11,431 nt of DNA from a virus (IMGVR_UViG_2651869755_000021); one strand, 5' to 3'. Positions 1 through 11,431 are shown, counted from the first letter of the stretch. Numbers and translations: made by a program. Notes: generated by a model from the sequence alone, not told the origin.

Positions 1-159
1 AACGCCATTCATGGCCATATCAATGATTTTCTGGTGCGTACCGGGTTGAGAAGCGGTGTAAGTGAACTGCAGTTGCCATGTTTTACGGCAGTGAGAGCAG
101 AGATAGCGCTGATGTCCGGCAGTGCTTTTGCCGTTACGCACCACCCCGTCAGTAGCTGA
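1..159 (+). CDS. Possible 3' end of an upstream ORF (partial, unknown function)
   Basis: Frame 1 is open from the window edge to a TGA at 157-159 (52 codons). No recognisable motifs. A competing minus-strand ORF (9-221) has a GTG start and no SD. Could equally be non-coding. Confidence 0.25.
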
Positions 160-318
160 ACAGGAGGGACAGCTGATAGAAACAGAAGCCACTGGAGCAC
201 CTCAAAAACACCATCATACACTAAATCAGTAAGTTGGCAGCATCACCAAACCAGTCTAGAACTTAATAATCAACTTCTGGCACAACATAATGCGCTGCTT
301 GAACGTCTTATCCGCACA

Positions 319-1140
319 ATGGCATCAGGTATTGTTATGCATCCTGACACGATTTCACGAGTGCAGGAATGTCGGGATACAGCAACTGAAACTGAAAATA
401 TGTCAGCGGCAATGACACTGGATGATCTGGAGTTCAGCGACGTTATCGCACTGGCTGGTTTCTACCCGGTAGCCACCCCTATCACAGAAGATATGCTGCA
501 ACGTGCTGTTGCCTACCGTGATGCTGAAGGCGATAAACGAGTAGTTCAGATTGATGCTCTCGACAGCGCATTGCAGGGCGTCAAACGAGCCAGGGCGCTG
601 CTTAAACCTGCTCTCCTGGACCTGTCCCGTAACATCCTTAAGTTCTGGGACGACCTGCCAACCATCGGCGAGCGACGTGCTTTTGCCGAGCAGCTACTTG
701 ATGCACCTGCAGATGGGCGTGATGAAGTTAAGCCGAAAAAGGCCAGTAACAAAGATGGAGAACGCACGGGGCCGTTTTACGTCAAAAATGTATCCGGCAC
801 AGCAGCCAGTGAACTCCACACCTTACGCAAGTTGAACGAGATGCTTAAAAAAGGCCATATCGAGATCAACCGTGTTGAGTACCTTCAGCTGCAGGAAGAA
901 TTTGCACGCAGAGACGCAGCAAATTCCAGCCAGAATAATGACGCCAAAGATGACCATACAATTGATTTCGCGGCACTACGCAAACAAGCTGAAGGGTTGA
1001 TCCTCCAGTTAGCAAAAGGGGGCTACCGGGCAGAAGCTATTGCAATTCTGGAAAAACAGGGAGCCAGGAAACTTGGTGAAGTAACGGATGAAAATCTCGC
1101 TGAAGTAATCACCCTGGCTGAAAAAGCACTGGAGGGTTAA
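319..1140 (+). CDS. Hypothetical phage protein (273 aa), first gene of the replication operon in this window
   Basis: Long ATG-initiated ORF co-directional with the module; its stop (1138-1140) sits 2 nt before the next start, with GAGGG just upstream of that start. No SD before ATG 319; ATG 337 has a weak AGGT 8 nt upstream and is an alternative start. No family recognised. Confidence 0.65.
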
Positions 1141-1142
1141 TC

Positions 1143-2444
1143 ATGCCAGACGTTCACGCACAACTTTCTCCATCATCAGCGCATCGATGGATGCGCTGCC
1201 CAGGAAGTCTGGCGCTGGAGGCCACACAACCGGATAAAGAAACAACTTTTGCAATCGAGGGCACTGCAGCGCACGCGCTTGCTGAAAAAGTTCTACGAAA
1301 CAGGCAAAGCCACCCGGAACACTACGCCGGATGCAATGTTTCTATGTTTCTCGGCTCATACCCCCTTCGCGAAAATCCTGATGATAAATCTGGCCCACAG
1401 GTGGATGATGAAATGGTCGAAGCCGTCGGCCGGTATGTTGATACGGTCTGGACTCTTGCAAAGAATAATGAACTATTGGTTGAACAACGTGTTGATTTCT
1501 CACATATAACGGGTGTGGAAGAATCTTTCGGAACTGCCGACGGCATAATCATCGCTGGTAACGAATTACAAATCCACGACCTGAAATATGGCAAAGGCGT
1601 CCGCATTGATGCAGAACAAAATGAGCAACTACAACTGTATGCTCTGGGTGCGCTTGAACAATTCAGCATGCTGTATGACTTTGAAACTGTAAGATTATTT
1701 ATTCACCAACCAAGGCTCAACCACGTTTCAGAATGGTCGTTAACCGTACAGGAACTTCAGTCTTTCGGTGAACGGGCGCTGGAGGCCGCAACCAGTGCGA
1801 TCCTTGTTCTCAATATTGCTGAATGCGAAGGCATTGAGACACTACCGCTGGAAAACTTCATACCTGGAGAAAAACAGTGCCGCTTCTGTAAAGCAAAAGC
1901 TATTTGCACTGCCCAGAAAATGCAGCATTTACAAACAGCGGCCAGCGATTTTGAAGATCTGACAAAGCCTGTCAGCGAAATAATCACCAATGCCAGCGCA
2001 CGTGTACCTCTGTTAACCATTGAGCAGCTTGCAGAGATCTATAGCCAGGCCGACTTTATTGAATCCTGGCTAAAGGCAGTACGGGACCGGGTTCACAATG
2101 AACTCAATGCCGGACATCCGGTACCGGGGTTTAAACTGGTAACAGGAAAACAAGGTAACCGGGCCTGGAGTGACGAAGAGGCAGCTCGCGCACTTCTGAA
2201 GGACCAGTTCAGGTACAAAACTGAAGAAGTATTCGACTTTAAACTTATTAGTCCCACAAAAGCCGAAAAACTTATCAAAAAGGCCAGTCCGCGCCGTTGG
2301 TCAAAAGTCGAGGCACTGATAACACGAGCTGATGGTAAACCCACCGTCGTTCCCGAGTCAGACCCACGCCCCGCACTCAATATCAACCCTGTAAATGATT
2401 TCGACGACGTATCCGACGATACGCTAACCGCAGACCTCATCTGA
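1143..2444 (+). CDS. PD-(D/E)XK nuclease, DUF2800 / Cas4-like phage exonuclease with Fe-S cysteine cluster
   Basis: N-terminal '[15 protein letters not shown]' signature; 'IHDLKYGKG' (D-x-K) and 'QLQLYALGA' (QxxxY) RecB-type nuclease motifs; one N-terminal Cys plus C-terminal '[10 protein letters not shown]' (CX2CX5C) as in Cas4/AddB. ATG 1143 preceded by GAGGG. Confidence 0.85.
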
Positions 2445-2459
2445 TTTAAGGAAATCCCC

Positions 2460-3008
2460 ATGAAACTGAAGCTGAACAATGTTCGTCTGGCCTTCCCGTC
2501 TCTGTTTGAAGCTAAAACTGTAAACGGCGAAGGCGATCCGCGTTTCTCCGCAGTATTTTTAATGTCTCCCAAACACCCACAACTGGAAGAAATCCGTAAA
2601 GCTATGAAGCAGGTAGCGAAGGAAAAATGGGGGGAGAAGTGGGAGTCCATTTATAACCAGCTGGAGAAAAAACTCAATCTGTGCCTGCATGATGGTGATG
2701 AAAAAGCAGAGTATGAAGGCTTTCCCGGCAATTTCTTCCTGAACGCTGCTAACAAAGCGCGCCCAGCTGTTCTTGATCGCGATCGTTCGCCACTAATTCA
2801 GGCTGATGGACGTCCCTATGCAGGGTGCTATGTAAACGCCGTTATCGATATCTGGGCACAGGACAATAATTTCGGTAAACGCATTAATGCCTCACTCGGC
2901 GGAGTCCAGTTCCTGCGAGACGGCGATGCATTTGCTGGCGGCGGAGTGGCAAGCGCTGACGATTTCGACGATATCAGCGAAGGTGCTGATGCTGAAGCAC
3001 TAATTTAA
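2460..3008 (+). CDS. Phage SSB-like ssDNA-binding protein (DUF2815-like) with acidic C-terminal tail
   Basis: 182 aa; AAGGA SD 8 nt before ATG 2460; N-terminus 'MKLKLNNVRLAFPSLFE' and acidic tail '...DDFDDISEGADAEALI' resemble the DUF2815/SSB family; sits between nuclease and polymerase as in known phage replication modules. Confidence 0.8.
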   Translation: MKLKLNNVRLAFPSLFEAKTVNGEGDPRFSAVFLMSPKHPQLEEIRKAMKQVAKEKWGEKWESIYNQLEKKLNLCLHDGDEKAEYEGFPGNFFLNAANKARPAVLDRDRSPLIQADGRPYAGCYVNAVIDIWAQDNNFGKRINASLGGVQFLRDGDAFAGGGVASADDFDDISEGADAEALI

Positions 3009-3019
3009 AAATATTCATC

Positions 3020-3038
3020 CCCCAGCTACGTGCTGGGG
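3020..3038 (+). promoter_or_regulatory. Perfect 7-bp stem / 5-nt loop hairpin (CCCCAGC-tacgt-GCTGGGG) just after the SSB-like gene stop
   Basis: Exact inverted repeat 3020-3026 / 3032-3038. No downstream U-run, so not a classical intrinsic terminator; possibly an RNA processing, stability or translational-control element overlapping the candidate starts at 3030 and 3045. Confidence 0.35.
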
Positions 3039-3059
3039 TATCTCATGAGGGAAAGAATA

Positions 3060-3707
3060 ATGTCACAGCCCGTATTAACTAATCACCTTAAAACTCAAAT
3101 CATCAATAACGCACTTGAGAAAGCGGGTATCCCCAAACGTAAATCAGCACTACGAGCTGCTCGTGTTGAATGGGCCGAACGTGTTCGGCTTGCAGCTATC
3201 GGGGGCGTAGAGAAAGAAGCTGAAATATTAAAAATATTAAAAATTATAAAAAAAATAGAAACACTGGTATCAAAATTACCCGAAGCATTAAAAACCGCCA
3301 ATAATATTATCAGGAAAGAGTGTTACATGTGTCTGAATCTGGCAGGTTCTCGGGTTACCGTCTATTTCAACGGTAACTATCGAGGATATGAATCAGGGTC
3401 ACCAGACCATATTCACAAAATCGCGCCGGGGGAATTTACCCTTCTGGCAAATGACCCTCTAGTTACAGAGTTTTACGGGTTTGATGCACTTTATGAGCAG
3501 ATACAGAGCGATGAGTCAGACATTCGACAGAATGTCAGCGCTGCACTCAGTAAAGTGCGCACAGTTAAGCGCCTGCTGGAAGAGTGGCCTGAAGCTAAAG
3601 AACTTCTGCCAGCCGATGCACCATCTGCTCCGCTTCCGCCAGCTATACGACGCGAAACTCTCAACGAAATGATCGGCCTCCCTTCTGACGAAGGGGTAGA
3701 TGCTTAA
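3060..3707 (+). CDS. Hypothetical protein with AT-rich Ile/Lys-rich repeat segment
   Basis: ORF is open from GTG 3030; in-frame ATGs at 3045 and 3060. ATG 3060 has GAGGG 8 nt upstream (preferred); 3030 and 3045 lie in or beside a hairpin. No recognised domain. Contains a 9-nt tandem repeat and an internal SD plus in-frame ATG at 3327. Confidence 0.6.
   Translation: MSQPVLTNHLKTQIINNALEKAGIPKRKSALRAARVEWAERVRLAAIGGVEKEAEILKILKIIKKIETLVSKLPEALKTANNIIRKECYMCLNLAGSRVTVYFNGNYRGYESGSPDHIHKIAPGEFTLLANDPLVTEFYGFDALYEQIQSDESDIRQNVSAALSKVRTVKRLLEEWPEAKELLPADAPSAPLPPAIRRETLNEMIGLPSDEGVDA
3225..3251 (+). repeat. Intragenic tandem 9-nt repeat (ATATTAAAA x2, then ATTATAAAA) followed by an A8 tract at 3248-3255
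   Basis: Read directly: atattaaaa/atattaaaa/attataaaa encoding ILK-ILK-IIK; strongly AT-rich compared with the rest of the gene. Confidence 0.8.
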
Positions 3708-3774
3708 TATTTCTTATAACAAAGGCTGGCTTAAGAAAATAGTTATCCAAACCAGCCTACCGCAATACTAAAAA

Positions 3775-4044
3775 TTAAAATTCATTGAATTTAAAAAGAC
3801 ATTTCCCTATTGGATTGCCATAGTCTCTACATGCCGAAATGCTGTCCCATACAGGCTGAGCCAAACACCCAAGAAAGAACCCAATAAGCGCAAAAATTAT
3901 AATTTTGGGAAGAACACGATCCTTAGGACCTTCTTCACGTTCGAGCCATGCGCCACCAGCCCGAACTATTCTCCCTAAAATATAAAGAATGGGGAAAGCA
4001 ATAATACCTATCAATGAAAGTATTCCGATACCAAAGCTAAACAC
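3775..4044 (-). CDS. Small membrane protein (89 aa, two predicted TM helices), opposite-strand accessory gene
   Basis: GTG start at 4044 preceded on the minus strand by AAGGAG with a 6-nt spacer. Hydrophobic stretches 'FSFGIGILSLIGIIAFPILYILG' and 'IIIFALIGFFLGCLAQPVW'. Lies in an AT-rich island between plus-strand genes. Confidence 0.6.
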   Translation of the reverse strand: MFSFGIGILSLIGIIAFPILYILGRIVRAGGAWLEREEGPKDRVLPKIIIFALIGFFLGCLAQPVWDSISACRDYGNPIGKCLFKFNEF

Positions 4045-4100
4045 CGCCGTCTCCTTGTTTATTTACACCTACATAACCATATATCACACAAGGTTATTTT

Positions 4101-6164
4101 ATGTCCAATATACTATGGGGTGACCTAGAAACCTATTGCGAAATCCCTATTACGAACGGTACCCATGCGTATGCCGAAGGCGTTGAAGTGATGCTGTTCG
4201 CATGGGCTATCAACGACGGGCCCATAAACGTGTGGGATATCACTGCCGGTGGTGGTATTCCACACGGCTTATACGAAGCAATCGCAGACCCTGAAACCCA
4301 GCTTTATTTCCATAACTCTCACTTCGACCGCACCGTCCTGCGTTATGCAATGCCGCGCCTGGCACCGCCAGTCGAACGTTGGCGCGACACAATGGTGCAG
4401 GCGCTGGCGCACGGTCTCCCGGGGTCTCTGGGGGAACTCTGCGAAGTACTAGGCGTCCCGCAAGACAAAGCGAAGGACAAAGAAGGTAAAGCGCTGATCC
4501 AGCTGTTCTGTAAGCCACGCCCGAAAAACAGCAAACTGCGCCGGGCCACCAGCAAAACTCACCCGGAAGAATGGCGGCGCTTTGTTGCTTACGCCGGACT
4601 GGATATCGAGGCAATGCGCGAAGTCTATAAACGTCTGCCGAAGTGGAATTATCAGGGGACAGAACTGGCGCTCTGGCATCGTGATCAGCAGATCAACGAC
4701 CGGGGCGTCTGCATGGACGTGGAACTCGCACGCGCTGCGATCGACGCGGTAGACCAGGAACAAAAGCGCCTGGCAAAGCGTACACAGGAAATGACTGATG
4801 GCGAAGTGCAGGCAGCCACACAACGAGACGCGTTGATTAAGCACATTGTTGAATCCTACGGTGTGGAGCTACCAGACATGCAACGCAGTACTCTGGAACG
4901 TCGTATTGCCGACCCCGATTTACCATCTGCCGTGAAAGAACTGCTGGCTATCCGCCTGCAGGCCAGTACTACCAGCACCAGTAAATACAAGGCACTGATG
5001 AAAGGCGTAAGCCACGACGGGCGCTTACGCGGTACGCTACAGTTCTGCGGGGCGTCACGTACCGGTCGTTGGGCCGGACGGCTATTCCAGCCCCAGAACC
5101 TTCCCCGCCCTTCACTAAAACAGGAACAAATAGACGAAGGCATCGAAGCACTGAAAGCCGGATGTGCAGACCTGCTGTTTGACAATATCATGGAACTAAC
5201 CAGTTCAGCGTTACGTGGCTGCATTATCGCGCCAACAGGCAAAAAGCTGGTGGTAAGTGACTTGTCGAACATTGAAGGCCGTATGCTGGCATGGCTGGCG
5301 GGAGAAGAATGGAAACTGAATGCATTCAGAGAGTACGACGCCGGAACGGGTCCGGACTTATATAAACTGGCGTATGCAAAAGCTTTCGATATTGCACCAG
5401 ATGATGTTGATAAACACATGCGTCAGATCGGTAAAGTCATGGAGCTCGGTCTGGGTTATGGTGGTGGTGTATCGGCTTTCATCACTTTTGCGCTGGTTTA
5501 CGGTCTCGATCTCGACGAGCTGGCGAACGCCGCACTGCCAAACATTCCCCGCGATGTTATCCGCGAGGCGAAAAGCTGGTACGACGAATCGGTTAAACGC
5601 AAGTCAACCTACGGGCTTTCTGAACGGGTATTTATCGCCTGCGACTCACTTAAACGTCTCTGGCGCAGGGCGCACCCGGCGACCTGCGATTTCTGGTACG
5701 AACTGGAGCGCACCGTCCGCACTGCAATCGCCACACCGCAAAAAACATTGTATTGCGGTTATCTTAAAATCCGCCGCGATGGCGCGTGGCTGCGCATACA
5801 GCTACCATCCGGACGCGCTGTATGCTACCCGTCTCCGGTTATCGAACAAGGGAATATCACCTACATGGGTGTTAACTCTTATTCGCGTAAATGGCAACGA
5901 CTCAAAACCTACGGCGGAAAGCTGGTGGAGAACGTCACCCAGGCGGCCGCCCGCGACGTTCTGGCCGGAAACATACCGCTTATCGAAGATGCCGGTTACA
6001 GCATTGTGCTGACGGTACACGACGAGGTGATCACCGAATCACCTGACACAGAAGATTTCAACGATAAAGCGCTTTCCGCGCTTCTCTCCACTAACCCCGA
6101 ATGGGCGCCCGATATCCCACTGAACGCTGGCGGTTTTGAGGCGTACCACTACCGTAAGGATTAA
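4101..6164 (+). CDS. Family A DNA polymerase (PolA-like) with 3'-5' exonuclease domain
   Basis: Exo I 'GDLET', Exo II '[10 protein letters not shown]', Exo III '[13 protein letters not shown]'; pol motif A '[15 protein letters not shown]', motif B '[16 protein letters not shown]', motif C 'VHDEVITE'. ATG 4101 with AAGG 8 nt upstream. Confidence 0.9.
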
Positions 6165-6169
6165 CTCCT

Positions 6170-6385
6170 ATGTCATTTAAATACCGGGATAATCCACTTT
6201 ATTACAGGGCTGCAAGGGAGGCTTTGCGACTTGAACAATCCGGCGAATATGACCGGGCAGCGAAGGTCTGGGCAAAAGCCAACCGCGAATCACATCACGA
6301 ACTGAATCAGGAATGGAGTGAACGCAGATCTGATTTTTGCCTGATGCAGAATATGCGTGAAAAGCGTAAGGCGGTCGAAGAATGA
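6170..6385 (+). CDS. Small hypothetical protein (71 aa)
   Basis: ATG 6170 six nt after the polymerase stop, AAGGA upstream; its stop overlaps the next start (ATGA at 6382-6385), suggesting translational coupling. No family recognised. Confidence 0.5.
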   Translation: MSFKYRDNPLYYRAAREALRLEQSGEYDRAAKVWAKANRESHHELNQEWSERRSDFCLMQNMREKRKAVEE

Positions 6386-6681
6386 TCGTTTACGTTGCCG
6401 GGCCGATGAGCGGTTACGAGCAATTTAACCGCCCGGCCTTTCATTCCGCAGCAAAGAGGCTAACGGACAAGGGATATGTTGTGCTTAACCCCGCAACTTT
6501 ACCCGATGGTTTGACACAGGCTCAGTACATGGACATCTGCCTCGCAATGCTTCGCTGTGCCGATACGATTTATATGCTCAAAGAGTGGGAGTACTCTGCC
6601 GGCGCACGTGCAGAAAACGCGTTGGCAGAGAAACTGGAATTGAATGTGCTTTTTGAAGAGTGGGATTCAGATGGCCTATGA
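6382..6681 (+). CDS. DUF4406 family protein (nucleoside 2-deoxyribosyltransferase-like fold)
   Basis: 99 aa; 'MIVYVAGPMSG...FN.PAF..AA..L...G..V.NPA...IYML..WE.S.GA..E...A..L' matches the DUF4406 pattern as I recall it; overlapping start/stop with the upstream gene. Confidence 0.7.
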   Translation: MIVYVAGPMSGYEQFNRPAFHSAAKRLTDKGYVVLNPATLPDGLTQAQYMDICLAMLRCADTIYMLKEWEYSAGARAENALAEKLELNVLFEEWDSDGL

Positions 6682-6952
6682 ACGTGAAAACCTAATCGAG
6701 AAGCATCTCGTCGCCGAAGTGAAAAAGGCTGGTGGGGTCGCCTTTAAGTTCATATCACCTGGTCGCCGCTCGGTACCAGATCGCATTGTTCTGCTACCCG
6801 GCGGCCGTCTCGTTTTCGTTGAATGTAAATCTCCCGGCAAGCCACCACGGCCTGACCAGTTGCGCGAGCATGAACGTCTGCGAAAGCTGGGCTTTACCGT
6901 GGTGGTGCTGGATAGCAAAGAGCTTACTGAAGTATTACCGCGAGCTCCCTAA
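6671..6952 (+). CDS. VRR-NUC domain nuclease (PD-(D/E)XK fold)
   Basis: 'VPDRIVLLPGGRLVFVECKSPGKPPRPDQLREHERL..GFTVVVLDS' carries the VRR-NUC D...E-x-K and Q signature. Start ambiguous: ATG 6671 (11-nt overlap with upstream gene, GGGA 5 nt upstream) or ATG 6644 (38-nt overlap). Confidence 0.75.
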   Translation: MAYERENLIEKHLVAEVKKAGGVAFKFISPGRRSVPDRIVLLPGGRLVFVECKSPGKPPRPDQLREHERLRKLGFTVVVLDSKELTEVLPRAP

Positions 6953-7867
6953 CTGAGTTTTTCGAAAGTTATCAGCGATTCTTGCTGCCTCAGAGCGCCC
7001 ACCAGGCAATAAACCAGCTTTACCAAGAATGTAATTTGGGAATTTAGTAGGTAGGTACTCATGACGGAACCAACGACGAAATTCTGGTAAAGCGTCATTG
7101 GGGTATGCCTGAATCATCTGTGGGTTCGAAGCTGCTTGGTTAAAATCATCCGGATAATGGTGCGCACACTTTACACGTTCTCCAAATTTTTCAGACAACC
7201 CTCTAGCGCTCCAATGTTTCGCCCAGCAGGAACCTACACTGATATCAGGTACCGTATACATATTAACTACGAGACCCGCGGTAATCAAATCAACCATCAA
7301 ACCTGCAATTTCATTAAAAACAATAAAATACCCATCCGGTACAGCTCCCGTACTTTGAATAAGAGAGACCCGGTCATGATAGTGGCGCCATGGATCTTCT
7401 GGCTGGTAATGTAACGCACCATAAATATAATCGCGGAGACCAACACGTGCTAGTTCACGATAGTATTGCTGAGCGGTCGCATTCGACGCTGTTTGTGATT
7501 CAAATGCGTAAAACTCCAGCAGTGCCATACAGACAATATCTGGAAACGCATAATGGACAGACCCATTACGCATAATCGGTATAAATAGTACTGGTTCACG
7601 GTAACCAGCCTGCTGCAGATAGGTACTTATAAACTCCATTCGCCCACGGGTGAATACGCCACTTGCAAAACATTGTGCGTATTCCGTTGCAATATCTGCA
7701 ATATTTGTTCGATTTACACCGCAAATTCTCGCCAAACCATTCTGAGTAAGGTACGGAATTCCGTTCTCCAAAACGCCCATTTCGATATCATTAAAAACCC
7801 CTTCCTGCTTGACACCAAGATCTAAGACCGCGCGGGGTGTGGGCTGAGGCTGACTCTGTGCATTCAT
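6935..7867 (-). CDS. Hypothetical protein (310 aa), opposite-strand accessory gene inside the replication module
   Basis: ATG at 7867 with AGGAA about 9 nt upstream on the minus strand; no comparable plus-strand ORF across the 918 bp beyond the VRR-NUC stop (6953-7870); visibly lower GC than its neighbours; 3' end overlaps the VRR-NUC 3' end by 18 nt (convergent). N-terminal segment 'IPYLTQNGLARICGVNRTNIADIA' may be a DNA-binding (HTH-like) region; no catalytic motif recognised. Confidence 0.7.
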   Translation of the reverse strand: MNAQSQPQPTPRAVLDLGVKQEGVFNDIEMGVLENGIPYLTQNGLARICGVNRTNIADIATEYAQCFASGVFTRGRMEFISTYLQQAGYREPVLFIPIMRNGSVHYAFPDIVCMALLEFYAFESQTASNATAQQYYRELARVGLRDYIYGALHYQPEDPWRHYHDRVSLIQSTGAVPDGYFIVFNEIAGLMVDLITAGLVVNMYTVPDISVGSCWAKHWSARGLSEKFGERVKCAHHYPDDFNQAASNPQMIQAYPNDALPEFRRWFRHEYLPTKFPNYILGKAGLLPGGRSEAARIADNFRKTQLGSSR

Positions 7868-7970
7868 CTTATTGATTTCCTTATTTTTATACCCTGAGAG
7901 CTACGTATTAGGACGTAATCTTAATCCCCCTGTTTATACGCCAACTTGCAATTTTTTGCGAGGTACTACT
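7868..7970. promoter_or_regulatory. Divergent intergenic control region between the 310-aa minus-strand gene and the SNF2 helicase gene
   Basis: About 100 bp AT-rich spacer holding the SDs of both divergent genes. Promoter elements are presumed, not individually resolved. Confidence 0.35.
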
Positions 7971-9365
7971 TTGAATACACTTTTCACCCCCCGCCCTTAT
8001 CAAGATCTCATCATCAATCATCAAATCGAAACCCTGCGCGGCAACATCTGGGCAGGGATGGGGATGGGTAAAACCGTAGCGACACTCACCACGCTGGAAG
8101 ATCTTTTCATGGCTGGAGCAGAAACACGCCCCGCGCTGGTCCTCGCGCCGCTACGCGTTGCAGCAAGCACCTGGCCTGATGAAGCTGTTAAATGGGGGCA
8201 TCTGCGTAATATTGAGGTACAGCCGATTATCGGTAACGCCAAAGCGCGCTCTACGGCGCTGGCGAACAGCAACGCGAGCGTGTTCACCATCAACTACGAT
8301 AACCTTGTCTGGCTGGTTGAGGAATTGGGAGAACGATGGCCGTTCGGTACTGTCATTCCAGATGAAAGCACCCGGCTAAAATCCTTCCGGCTACGAGGTG
8401 GTGGTAAGCGCGCTGCGGCACTAGGCAAAGTGGCGCATAAGTATGTCCGGCGCTGGATAAATCTCACCGGTACGCCAGCACCGAACGGCCTGGTAGATTT
8501 GTGGGGACAATCGTGGTTTGTGGACCAAGGGCAACGTCTCGGGCGCACTTACGGCGCGTTTACCTCACGCTGGTTCAACTCAATACAGTTTCCGGGGCAG
8601 AGCTGGACCAAACTGGAGCCGTTTGCTCACTCACAGGGTGAAATACAGCGAGCGTTAGCCGATGTGACTCTCTCGCTGGATGCGGCCGACTGGTTCGATA
8701 TCAAAGACCCTATCCATAACGTAATCCACGTGGATATGCCGCCGAAGGCCCGTCAGCAGTATCGTGAAATGGAAAAAGAAATGTTCCTCGAGCTGAATGG
8801 CGAAGGCATCGAAGCACCGAACGCCGCGGCAAAGACACTGAAGTGTCTGCAAATCGCCAGTGGCGCAGTATACACAGACGACACCGGAAGTTGGTCAGAA
8901 CTGCATGACATCAAACTGCAGGCGCTGGACAGCATACTGACCGAAGCAGCTGGCGCACCTGTGCTGGTTGCTTATCACTGGAAACACGATCTTGAACGCT
9001 TGCTTAAAGCATTCCCTCGCGGTCGTCACCTCGACCAGGATCCAAAGACACTGCGCGACTGGAATTCCGGAAAGATTCCTGTTCTCTTTGCACACCCAGC
9101 CAGCGCGGGCCACGGCCTGAACATGCAGGACGGCGGAAATATACTGGTATTTTTCTCACACTGGTGGGACCTGGAGCAATATCAGCAAATTATTGAACGT
9201 ATCGGCCCCACCAGGCAGATACAGGCCGGACACAATCGTCCGGTATTTATTCACCACATTATTGCTGCCGACACTATGGACGAAATGGTGATGGAGCGGC
9301 GCAACTCAAAACGAACAGTGCAGGACATCCTGCTCGATGCCATGAAAAAGAGAGGTATAGCATGA
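7971..9365 (+). CDS. SNF2/DEAD-like family helicase (phage replication helicase)
   Basis: 'RPYQ' then motif I 'GMGMGKT', motif II 'IPDESTRLK', motif III 'LTGTPAPNGL', C-terminal 'HPASAGHGLNMQ' and 'QQIIERIGPTRQ'. Proposed TTG start at 7971 with GAGGT 6 nt upstream; the ORF is open from TTG 7872, but that would begin at the neighbouring gene's start. Confidence 0.8.
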   Translation: MNTLFTPRPYQDLIINHQIETLRGNIWAGMGMGKTVATLTTLEDLFMAGAETRPALVLAPLRVAASTWPDEAVKWGHLRNIEVQPIIGNAKARSTALANSNASVFTINYDNLVWLVEELGERWPFGTVIPDESTRLKSFRLRGGGKRAAALGKVAHKYVRRWINLTGTPAPNGLVDLWGQSWFVDQGQRLGRTYGAFTSRWFNSIQFPGQSWTKLEPFAHSQGEIQRALADVTLSLDAADWFDIKDPIHNVIHVDMPPKARQQYREMEKEMFLELNGEGIEAPNAAAKTLKCLQIASGAVYTDDTGSWSELHDIKLQALDSILTEAAGAPVLVAYHWKHDLERLLKAFPRGRHLDQDPKTLRDWNSGKIPVLFAHPASAGHGLNMQDGGNILVFFSHWWDLEQYQQIIERIGPTRQIQAGHNRPVFIHHIIAADTMDEMVMERRNSKRTVQDILLDAMKKRGIA

Positions 9366-9562
9366 GCGAGAAACCCAACGATTTACTCACCCCGGATGAA
9401 GTATGCCAAAAGTTAGGCATTACACAGAAAACGCTATGTGAGTGGAATATTAAGCATCGTCATCGGGCTATCCTGGCACCAATTCGTTTCAGTGCAAAAG
9501 TAGTTCGTTATGAGCGCCGAAATGTCGACGCTTTTATTCAAAAATGTCGCAGCCAGTATTAA
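9362..9562 (+). CDS. AlpA/Xis-like HTH DNA-binding protein (putative excisionase or transcriptional regulator)
   Basis: 66 aa; 'LLTPDEVCQKLGITQKTLCEW...RYERRNVDAFI' resembles the AlpA/excisionase family; ATG overlaps the helicase stop (ATGA 9362-9365); GAGAGG SD upstream. Confidence 0.75.
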   Translation: MSEKPNDLLTPDEVCQKLGITQKTLCEWNIKHRHRAILAPIRFSAKVVRYERRNVDAFIQKCRSQY

Positions 9563-10956
9563 CCTCGCCGCCGTAGCAATGCCACCTGCGCAAGTATGCT
9601 CCGCTCGTGAGCCTCGAAAGCTTCGCGCTTTAACGCAATCTCTTCCTGTAAAATCTCATCAGAAAAGTCGTAATGTTCTGCCATCGGGTCATCTGACTTG
9701 CTGGAGTGGTGAAGGCAAAGGAGGCTGATTTCCCTTCGGTCTGATCGGGAATAGCCTCTTTCCTTCATCAAGGCAATAACATTGCTCTTAAGGAATTTAC
9801 GGCACATCGTATTAAATGCACCGTCTTTCCCTTTAACAGTCCCATCATGTTTTATTCCTTTTACAGCCCCGTCCGGGCTGTATGTTTTCACCAGCTTATC
9901 CAGTGATCGTTTTGAAAATGGCTGCATTGGATCACGTGGCTGCAAAAATACATAATCCCTGTTGCACTCAGGAACTGAATCACGCCAGGCTTTCTGCTCG
10001 TCGATAATCCGCCGGATCTCAGGCGTTATCGGCAGGCGGAAAGCCTTTTGTGTTTTCATAGCCCCTCGCATGCCGATAACCCCTTCCGGATAAACAATTT
10101 CACCAGCCTCCTCGTGAACGTAGTCCCAGCGCAGGTTATGGACATTAATCGGACGAACGCCAGTGATGATCATGAAGCGAACAGCATTCTTCTGGTGTAC
10201 AGAGGTGCAGGCAGCAACATTGAGCCAGAGTCGGGCGATTGATTCAATATCGGTAAAAAGCCGTGTGGGGGTGGGTTTCTGTACGCGGGAGGAAACATAA
10301 TCATCTGGCAAACTGGCGGCAACATTGCGGCCGTTGCAAAGAGTAGGTGCGCAGAACTTCCAGAACCGACGGAGCTCGGCAAACAACTCTAGGGCGTTAT
10401 TGTTCGAGCGAGTGGCGATCCACTCGTCCAGCACTTCCACCAGCCGACTGTATGTTACGTCGCTGAACACCTCGCGCTCGCCGAACGTTGCTTTAATCCG
10501 GTCGATACGCACCCCGTAGGTTGTGAAACTGTCCGGGCTCAGCTTCTGCCGGGCTACTTTGGCTTTGAGGTCATCCCGGTACATTTCCAGCGCTGCATGT
10601 ACGGACTCTGCCCGCAGTCCACCGTCAGCCATACCTAGTGCTTTTTCGCGCGCCAGCTGGATAGCGAGCTCCGGCCACTCGCCGAGCTTTTTACCTTTGA
10701 GGCCCATCTTTTTTGGAAACTCGGCGTAAAATGTAACCTTACCGGCTTTGCTGAAATCGATACGGAGATAGTTCTCTTTTTCGTATTTGGAACGGCGAGC
10801 CACACCGGAAGCAGCGAGGATGATTTTGGCGGCAGCAACACAGATTTTCATGTGTGCGCTGGTATAGGGGGGTTTACAAGCGTCCCATTTTTCAGATGCG
10901 GCTAAAACATCGTCATTATTGGGGCTATCCGGATTATGTGTTACAGTGCACGGCAT
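9559..10956 (-). CDS. Tyrosine recombinase (phage integrase)
   Basis: Catalytic-core features: 'ITGVRPINV' (Arg box), 'LLCLHHSSKSDDPMAEHYDF' (His and Tyr region). ATG 10956 has AAGGA with a 6-nt spacer; the ORF is open from TTG 10962, and ATG 10851 is another candidate but lacks an SD. Stop overlaps the AlpA-like stop. Confidence 0.8.
   Translation of the reverse strand: MPCTVTHNPDSPNNDDVLAASEKWDACKPPYTSAHMKICVAAAKIILAASGVARRSKYEKENYLRIDFSKAGKVTFYAEFPKKMGLKGKKLGEWPELAIQLAREKALGMADGGLRAESVHAALEMYRDDLKAKVARQKLSPDSFTTYGVRIDRIKATFGEREVFSDVTYSRLVEVLDEWIATRSNNNALELFAELRRFWKFCAPTLCNGRNVAASLPDDYVSSRVQKPTPTRLFTDIESIARLWLNVAACTSVHQKNAVRFMIITGVRPINVHNLRWDYVHEEAGEIVYPEGVIGMRGAMKTQKAFRLPITPEIRRIIDEQKAWRDSVPECNRDYVFLQPRDPMQPFSKRSLDKLVKTYSPDGAVKGIKHDGTVKGKDGAFNTMCRKFLKSNVIALMKERGYSRSDRREISLLCLHHSSKSDDPMAEHYDFSDEILQEEIALKREAFEAHERSILAQVALLRRRG

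Positions 10957-11431
<475 letters not shown>

Follow-up and report, generated by a model that had tools for sequence, protein, structure and literature searches.

Gene content of the window

The window analyzed here is a stretch of 11,431 nucleotides of viral DNA (IMGVR_UViG_2651869755_000021). It opens in the end of an insertion sequence (IS), IS1, and then carries a run of phage genes encoding a DUF2800 nuclease, a single-stranded DNA-binding protein (SSB), a family A DNA polymerase (PolA), a VRR-NUC nuclease, a SNF2-family helicase and an excisionase-like protein, followed by an integrase gene, an attachment site (att) core and the host gene yfhL. The genes were mapped by open reading frame (ORF) listing and by profile searches against Pfam, PHROG, NCBIfam and PADLOC (Table 1). 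Read together with its relatives, the window very probably represents the right-hand arm of a yfhL-integrated temperate myovirus prophage, and holds the early-left operon of that prophage with the known duf2800-gp2.5-polA-VRR_NUC-SNF2 module, cut by IS1 in this copy.

A preliminary description of this DNA had listed a nuclease, an SSB, PolA, VRR-NUC and a SNF2 helicase as one co-directional replication unit covering positions 1-9562 and ending at int. All five were recovered by profile matches, in that order and on the plus strand. The unit is less uniform than described, however, with two minus-strand genes (the 89-amino-acid gene and bstA) embedded among the operon genes. The int gene does follow the xis-like gene, but it is convergent with the operon and lies beyond position 9562. 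The extent also required revision: the IS1 end is outside the module, and the phage/host boundary (~11200-11218) is well past 9562, so that only one prophage end falls within the window. Structural genes were absent from the ORF listing and profile matches, as had been stated, and no tRNA gene was found in the window. The swappable cassettes, the IS1 left end and the loss of the control region, all described below, had been missed.

Table 1. Features of the 11,431-nucleotide window (aa, amino acids).
Feature	Position	Strand	Support
IS1 end (left inverted repeat and start of insA)	1-247	-	99.6% identity to annotated IS1 in phage P1 and others
Remnant of 300-aa first operon gene, phrog_6784	250-1140	+	PHROG 1.2e-162
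DUF2800/PD-(D/E)XK (RecB/Cas4-like) exonuclease	1143-2444	+	Pfam DUF2800 1.9e-110, PDDEXK_1 2.9e-10; PHROG 69 'exonuclease' 2.6e-136
Gp2.5/Enc34-type ssDNA-binding/annealing protein	2460-3008	+	Pfam Enc34_ssDNA-bd 2.4e-44; PHROG 112
Nmad5-family protein (cassette 1, gene a)	3060-3707	+	Pfam Nmad5 2.9e-55
89-aa protein, two hydrophobic segments (cassette 1, gene b)	3775-4044	-	translation
Family A DNA polymerase, N-terminal 3'-5' exonuclease-like domain	4101-6164	+	Pfam DNA_pol_A 50.3 bits; PHROG 17 2e-125
ANR-family (PerC-like) small regulator (cassette 2, gene a)	6170-6385	+	NCBIfam ANR_neg_reg 9.4e-20, 70.2 bits vs cut-off 32; PHROG 2227
DUF4406 (nucleoside 2-deoxyribosyltransferase-like) protein (cassette 2, gene b)	6382-6681	+	Pfam DUF4406 8.6e-34; PHROG 355
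VRR-NUC nuclease, phage-type	6671-6952	+	PDB 4QBO 7e-15, 4QBN 2e-12; PHROG 93 3.2e-32
BstA abortive-infection gene (cassette 3)	6935-7867	-	PADLOC BstA 1.4e-115; PHROG 6287 2.9e-105
SNF2-family (SF2) helicase/translocase	7971-9365	+	Pfam SNF2-rel_dom 1.3e-11, Helicase_C 2.2e-4; PHROG 62 1e-155
Excisionase-like HTH_17 protein, last operon gene	9362-9562	+	Pfam HTH_17 1.3e-5; PHROG 4745 1e-26, excisionase families 66 and 1553
Tyrosine integrase, convergent with operon	9559-10956	-	Pfam Phage_integrase 30.4 bits vs cut-off 27.1; PHROG 1 'integrase' 1.7e-26
Phage-supplied yfhL 5' end	11171-11200	+	
18-bp att core AATTGTGATATGTGTGAA	11201-11218	+	
yfhL (4Fe-4S ferredoxin), rebuilt; host yfhL from att core to 11431	11171-11431	+	

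Prophage family and integration site

Positions 248-11431 were matched by megablast at 99.6-99.9% identity to E. coli chromosomal prophages such as that of NZ_CP047378, and the backbone blocks were 95-99% identical to those of the Escherichia phages vB_EcoM-606R2, -611R5 and -689R2. Upstream of the operon, the relatives carry a 49-aa gene, sometimes a 172-aa minus-strand gene, a CI-like repressor gene (HTH and Peptidase_S24 domains) and a divergent Cro-like gene. Beyond the Cro-like gene lie genes for a primase-helicase, a Q antiterminator, holin, endolysin and Rz, followed by small and large terminase, portal, head, neck, sheath-type tail and baseplate genes. Full prophages were ~42 kb, the deposited vB_EcoM genomes 36-43 kb, and the NZ_CP047378 copy ~48 kb including IS copies. 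The NZ_CP047378 prophage (L012, 4219327-4238000), the nearest relative in a complete genome, was decayed, with IS3, IS4, IS30 and IS421 interrupting tail, tape-measure-like and baseplate genes and a frameshift in the primase gene.

Whether the element is a full prophage or a satellite-like, phage-derived island with its own replication genes, no virion genes and dependence on a helper had been left undecided in the preliminary description. By itself, the window contains no structural gene and has an IS element at its left end, and this copy could be a remnant. Against an island, genes for CI/Cro, primase, Q, lysis, terminase, portal, head, tail and baseplate follow, between yfhH and yfhL, in the relatives that are 99.6-99.9% identical over 248-11431, and related genomes of ~36-43 kb have been deposited as vB_EcoM phages. 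Satellites of the phage-inducible chromosomal island (PICI) or P4 type are ~10-15 kb and carry no capsid, tail or terminase genes, which does not describe these relatives. A satellite is thus highly improbable. Since every near-identical relative had immunity, lysis and virion genes, the element is by type a complete temperate myovirus prophage; the window itself starts in IS1, and the DNA upstream of this particular copy was not recovered.

The temperate lifestyle proposed earlier is borne out by int, the xis-like gene and the att core inside yfhL, as well as by the near-identical full prophages and the deposited phage genomes. In NZ_CP047378 the prophage sits between yfhH and yfhL. The 18-bp core AATTGTGATATGTGTGAA was found both in the window and at the yfhH-side prophage end of NZ_CP047378, where the stub of the native yfhL start ends in it. 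The yfhL start preceding the core in the window is phage-borne and differs from the native MALLITKKCI..., which is left as a stub at the other end (L012 7094-7141). The phage therefore carries a substitute 5' end, and yfhL is rebuilt intact after insertion. The shared att core and the rebuilt yfhL are direct evidence of site-specific integration in the 5' end of yfhL.

Polymerase and other backbone genes

Four backbone blocks (248-3008, 4101-6152, 6671-6919 and ~7975-11431) were conserved in blastn comparisons with the relatives. They were kept in all seven of the full-length relatives fetched and in vB_EcoM-606R2 as far as its record reaches. Backbone ORFs from 1143 onward were all intact and 99.9% identical to those of the relatives. 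In the virulent Dhillonvirus B2, genes for DUF2800, a small protein, SSB, PolA, VRR-NUC and SNF2 run in one direction. Because the order is conserved in the relatives and repeated in Dhillonvirus B2, it is not due to chance.

The polymerase scored 50.3 bits against Pfam DNA_pol_A (gathering cut-off 34.3), and the same domain was matched by all 11 members of a family alignment that reached down to 31% identity and included Edwardsiella, Dhillonvirus, Paenibacillus, Staphylococcus, Streptococcus, Bacteroides, Xanthomonas and Chi-like phage polymerases. BLASTP of PolA against T7 gp5 was not significant and was replaced by a family-profile search. In a single-sequence search of the PDB, motifs A and B of the polymerase, and less strongly motif C, aligned with those of Taq and further Pol I enzymes; with the family profile, Taq and Klenow were matched at ~2e-20 and motifs A, B and C were all aligned, with the pairs (family/Taq) DlSaiE/DYSQIE, RqkgKvaeLglGyg/RRAAKTINFGVLYG and vHDE/VHDE. 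In the window protein, VVSD387LSNIEGR, R441QIGK445VMELGLGYG and VH640D641E642 align with Taq DYSQIELR, RRAAKTINFGVLYG and VHDEL, respectively. D387, R441, K445, H640, D641 and E642 were invariant across the family alignment. Loss of the catalytic Asp residues, which had been put forward as the observation that might overturn the assignment, was not seen: both D387 and D641 are kept and align with Taq. Leu449 aligns with Taq F667 and E. coli F762 and was also invariant, and the gene is flanked by DUF2800/PDDEXK and SNF2 genes; by alignment and gene context, the polymerase is assigned to the 'Leu762' type. Of 5426 complete E. coli genomes, 159 carried the gene, in each case chromosomally, and the family was present in 1733 deposited phage genomes.

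Proofreading motifs had also been reported for PolA. Residues resembling ExoI (D8xE10), ExoII (N72SHFD76) and ExoIII (Y164AGLD168) were present, with D8, E10, Y164 and D168 conserved in the family, but profile matches were weak: PHROG exonuclease-subunit families matched at ~1e-6, and no exonuclease domain was aligned in the family-profile search of the PDB. The predicted proofreading domain is thus less secure than the polymerase domain.

The SSB scored 151.5 bits against Pfam PF10991 (cut-off 26) and matched Enc34 ORF6 and DUF2815 structures in the PDB at 1e-16 to 2e-14 (4JG2, 1e-16; 5ODJ, 4e-16; 4KLK). Its C-terminal tail is acidic (...SADDFDDISEGADAEALI / DDFDDISEGADAEALI). These features place it in the Gp2.5/Enc34 (DUF2815) family, and single-stranded DNA binding and annealing are predicted. 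For VRR-NUC, the PD...ExK residues (VPDRIV...FVECK) were aligned with the solved phage-type enzymes 4QBO and 4QBN, the Pfam score being just below threshold (20.1 vs 23.8); it is likely a junction-resolving enzyme. The SNF2 protein scored 44.6 bits for SNF2-rel_dom (cut-off 24.9) and was borderline for Helicase_C (21.9 vs 23.5). It carries GMGKT and DEST motifs and starts at a TTG codon after a GAGG ribosome-binding site, the start that is also annotated in RefSeq relatives.

The first gene of the operon was found in its intact 300-aa form in relative L001 and others. It was always upstream of DUF2800 in the prophage family and occurred across Enterobacteriaceae; the best 120 of 597 homologues were all 'hypothetical' enterobacterial proteins. 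The protein had no Pfam, NCBIfam, PADLOC or PDB sequence match. Its AlphaFold2 (AF2) model was of moderate quality (predicted local distance difference test, pLDDT, 66), and no PDB match was returned by Foldseek at E<1. Together with Nmad5 (see below), it is a conserved phage protein still without an assigned function.

Replication functions and proposed mechanism

The module had been called self-contained. Searches of the window with Pfam, PHROG, PADLOC and NCBIfam profiles returned no primase, replicative helicase or initiator, and origin-like, iteron-like or tandem repeats occurred at chance level only; because these are missing, the module is not self-contained. The further claim, that replication proceeds free of host initiation factors, concerns the whole phage and does not follow from the window. 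In the relatives, a primase-helicase of ~730-750 aa (PrimPol and DUF5906 domains, PHROG 'DNA primase' 7e-87, or VapE-like) adjoins cro in the divergent early operon. Dhillonvirus B2 is split likewise, with a divergent 750-aa AAA_25 primase/helicase-like protein encoded opposite the polymerase gene run. The replication machinery is divided between the two early operons. Its polymerase/recombination half lies in the window and does not amount to an autonomous replicon.

The following steps are proposed from family membership and by analogy with T7. After CI inactivation, the left operon would supply PolA, with its polymerase and putative proofreading exonuclease, as the phage replicase. The Gp2.5-like protein would coat and anneal single strands and probably contacts the polymerase via its acidic tail. 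Ends would be resected by the DUF2800 exonuclease for annealing and recombination-dependent replication, branched DNA may be cut or resolved by VRR-NUC before packaging, and forks or junctions may be remodeled by the SNF2 translocase. Priming and fork unwinding would be supplied from the right operon by the primase-helicase. Excision at the yfhL core would then depend on the xis-like protein and on the integrase, which is transcribed separately.

The same genes were also considered as mainly a Red-like recombination and repair set, in which the primase-helicase recruits the host replisome for bulk synthesis and PolA fills gaps only. In the left operon the module stands where lambda has exo-bet-gam, an exonuclease and an annealing protein form a recombination pair (PMC8093625), Leu762 polymerases have been described as slower and more accurate, with SF2 helicase neighbors of repair type (PMC6302109), and no processivity factor was identified. 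This explanation is nevertheless rated as quite improbable because many virulent phages (Dhillonvirus, Jersey-, Kaguna- and Chi-like) have no polymerase system other than the same PolA and neighbors, and dependence on a host polymerase is less likely there. In addition, the polymerase was strictly conserved in the backbone while its neighbors were swapped.

IS1 junction and operon control

The left inverted repeat of IS1, GGTGATGCTGCC, was located as its reverse complement at 236-247, and insA, on the minus strand, points away from the phage genes. All relatives matched the window from 248 only. By comparison with an intact relative, the junction lies about four codons into the 300-aa first gene, so that the start codon and the first ~4 codons are lost. 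With IS1 in between, the window operon is detached from the control region that the relatives have on the cI side. Because IS1 insertions are strongly polar, the module in this copy is probably poorly expressed or silent.

In relative L009, operator-like repeats are mirrored on the two sides of cI (6999-7022 vs 7841-7864; 7052-7069 vs 7871-7888) and mark candidate PR and PL regions. The arrangement would fit control of the left operon by CI. No N-like antiterminator gene was identified in the window operon or in the intact relative.

The window copy may be an IS1-bounded remnant in which everything left of 248 (immunity, primase and late genes) has been deleted, with the left operon, int and att left behind. 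IS1 directly adjoins codon ~4 of the first gene, the junction or a matching other side was found in no genome or contig searched, and the relative NZ_CP047378 is itself full of IS elements and pseudogenes. A simple IS1 insertion would look alike within the window, and nothing speaks directly against a deletion; with the backbone ORFs from 1143 intact and 99.9% identical to those of the relatives, any decay must be recent. A remnant is regarded as a tentative possibility for this copy.

Several results weigh against the reading of the window as the IS1-cut early-left operon of a yfhL prophage and against the functions given to it. The IS1 junction and the DNA left of position 1 were not found by megablast against complete E. 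coli genomes; nor was the junction found by exact-protein look-ups (truncated first gene, DUF2800, 215-aa Nmad5 variant) or in exact scans of GTDB genomes and JGI metagenomes. A strong intrinsic-terminator-like hairpin lies just upstream of the left operon in a relative (L009 8866-8893) and suggests a requirement for antitermination. The consensus promoter and terminator scan of the window gave nothing above shuffled expectation. For the exonuclease domain of the polymerase, Pfam exo1 reached 17.5 bits, below the cut-off of 23.6. In the literature, no experiment on this prophage family was found, the protein roles being taken from homology and the T7 analogy. The assignment as the right-hand prophage arm is still considered very probable.

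Exchangeable cassettes

Three segments between the backbone blocks (3009-4100, 6153-6670 and 6920-7975) were found by blastn to be replaced among relatives that are otherwise 95-99% identical; accessory cassettes make up about a quarter of the span. Between SSB and PolA, where the window has Nmad5 and the 89-aa membrane protein, relatives have a SIR2_2 protein, a 166-aa gene, or Nmad5 with another gene. Between PolA and VRR-NUC, the ANR (AraC negative regulator) and DUF4406 genes of the window are replaced by a TIR-like (CAP12/PCTIR) gene or a HATPase_c gene. Between VRR-NUC and SNF2, the place of BstA is taken by a TfpB-like gene or by a Dcm methylase with a small gene. The slots look like sites for exchange of defense and anti-defense genes within the early operon. 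The 89-aa protein had no Pfam, PHROG, PADLOC or NCBIfam match and is annotated as 'hypothetical protein' in RefSeq relatives.

The AF2 model of Nmad5 was confident (pLDDT 83.6) and consisted of three long helices, a small sheet and one long helix. It had no match among solved structures, and BFVD returned Nmad5-family proteins only. The family recurs in phages with the same PolA family (Dhillonvirus, Edwardsiella phage eiAU); in Dhillonvirus B2, a Pfam scan of nine non-polymerase genes did not find Nmad5 near PolA. A 9-nucleotide repeat, AAATATTAA, occurs 3.3 times in tandem at 3223-3252 in the Nmad5 gene and accounts for the 212- and 215-aa length variants. In the sole experimental paper, a point mutation of Nmad5, but not its deletion, let Dhillonviruses escape Tmn defense, and no activity was given (PMC11846954).

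For BstA, the PADLOC match spans residues 12-304, identity to BTP1 BstA was 39% over 91% of the length, and a BstA_C domain is precomputed for proteins identical to that of the window. By these matches, cassette 3 is assigned as a bona fide full-length BstA homologue. It was present in 11 of the 159 polymerase-bearing E. coli genomes. BstA has been shown experimentally to be an abortive-infection protein that blocks phage DNA replication and is neutralized by a cognate DNA element, aba, which spans its start, is specific to the homologue and is functionally defined (PMC8585504). No CCCGCC terminal direct repeat like that of BTP1 was found around 7838-7900 at the bstA start, where only a GGCTGA tandem (7842-7853) was present; given this homologue specificity, the missing repeat is uninformative. 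The orientation of bstA against the operon would fit an accessory gene with its own transcription, one that could be active in a lysogen with the operon under repression.

The early-left operon might serve as a three-slot exchange platform for defense and counter-defense genes (SIR2, TIR-like, HATPase_c, Dcm methylase, BstA, Nmad5). The position of BstA within the operon would let its self-immunity element be amplified along with the PolA-driven replicon, and Nmad5 could be a replisome accessory or an anti-defense factor and not a DNA-modifying enzyme. This proposal as a whole is considered rather unlikely. The three well-delimited slots are a handy place to seek new defense and anti-defense genes in enterobacterial prophages.

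Earlier descriptions or public annotations already cover the module type, the Leu762 polymerase class, the prophage family and BstA. The value of the analysis is corrective: the polymerase module is not autonomous, the element type is a full temperate myovirus, and the window copy is probably disabled at its head by IS1.

Comparison with known systems

A duf2800-gp2.5-polA module has been named for phages of Firmicutes and Gram-negative bacteria (PMC8093625), and Leu762 PolA with RecB-like and SNF2-like neighbors, linked to temperate phages, has been classified as 'Leu762 group I' (PMC6302109). The window shares with these the order of a PD-(D/E)XK DUF2800 nuclease, a DUF2815/Gp2.5-like SSB and a Leu762 PolA with a SNF2-like helicase nearby, the lack of a bacterial-type ssb gene, and the association with temperate phages. 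It differs from the published module in its three exchangeable cassettes, its early-left placement on the CI side, where it ends in xis, and its convergent int.

Gene order in vB_EcoM-606R2, -611R2/R5 and -689R2 (ON470579 and related) is as in the window, with 96-99% nucleotide identity across the backbone blocks, and the integrase and attachment site are common to the yfhL-integrated E. coli prophages. The cassettes of these phages and prophages are different: ANR/DUF4406 and BstA give way to TIR-like and other genes, and Nmad5 to a gene on the minus strand. Unlike the window, the vB_EcoM phage records contain no IS1.

The T7 set (gp5, gp2.5, gp6 exonuclease, gp3 endonuclease I and gp4 primase-helicase) has proposed one-to-one functional counterparts among the genes of the window and its relatives: a family A polymerase with a putative proofreading domain, an acidic-tailed OB-fold SSB, a 5' exonuclease, a nuclease that cuts junctions, and a primase-helicase encoded separately. 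Pairwise similarity of the polymerases was not significant, however, and the nuclease families differ. T7 has Tyr at the 762 position (PMC6302109), where the window polymerase has Leu, and the primase-helicase of the relatives is of the PrimPol/DUF5906 or VapE-like type and is encoded in a separate operon.

Relative to cI, the window operon is the positional counterpart of the lambda PL operon (gam-bet-exo ... xis-int), with recombination functions followed by excision and integration genes beside att. In contrast to lambda, a DNA polymerase and a helicase are added, int is inverted and transcribed separately, and an N-like antiterminator was not among the genes identified. The BstA of the window is a full-length homologue of that in the BTP1 BstA-aba system (PMC8585504) and is likewise prophage-borne, but bstA lies between VRR-NUC and SNF2 in the replication operon, whereas in BTP1 it is downstream of cI.

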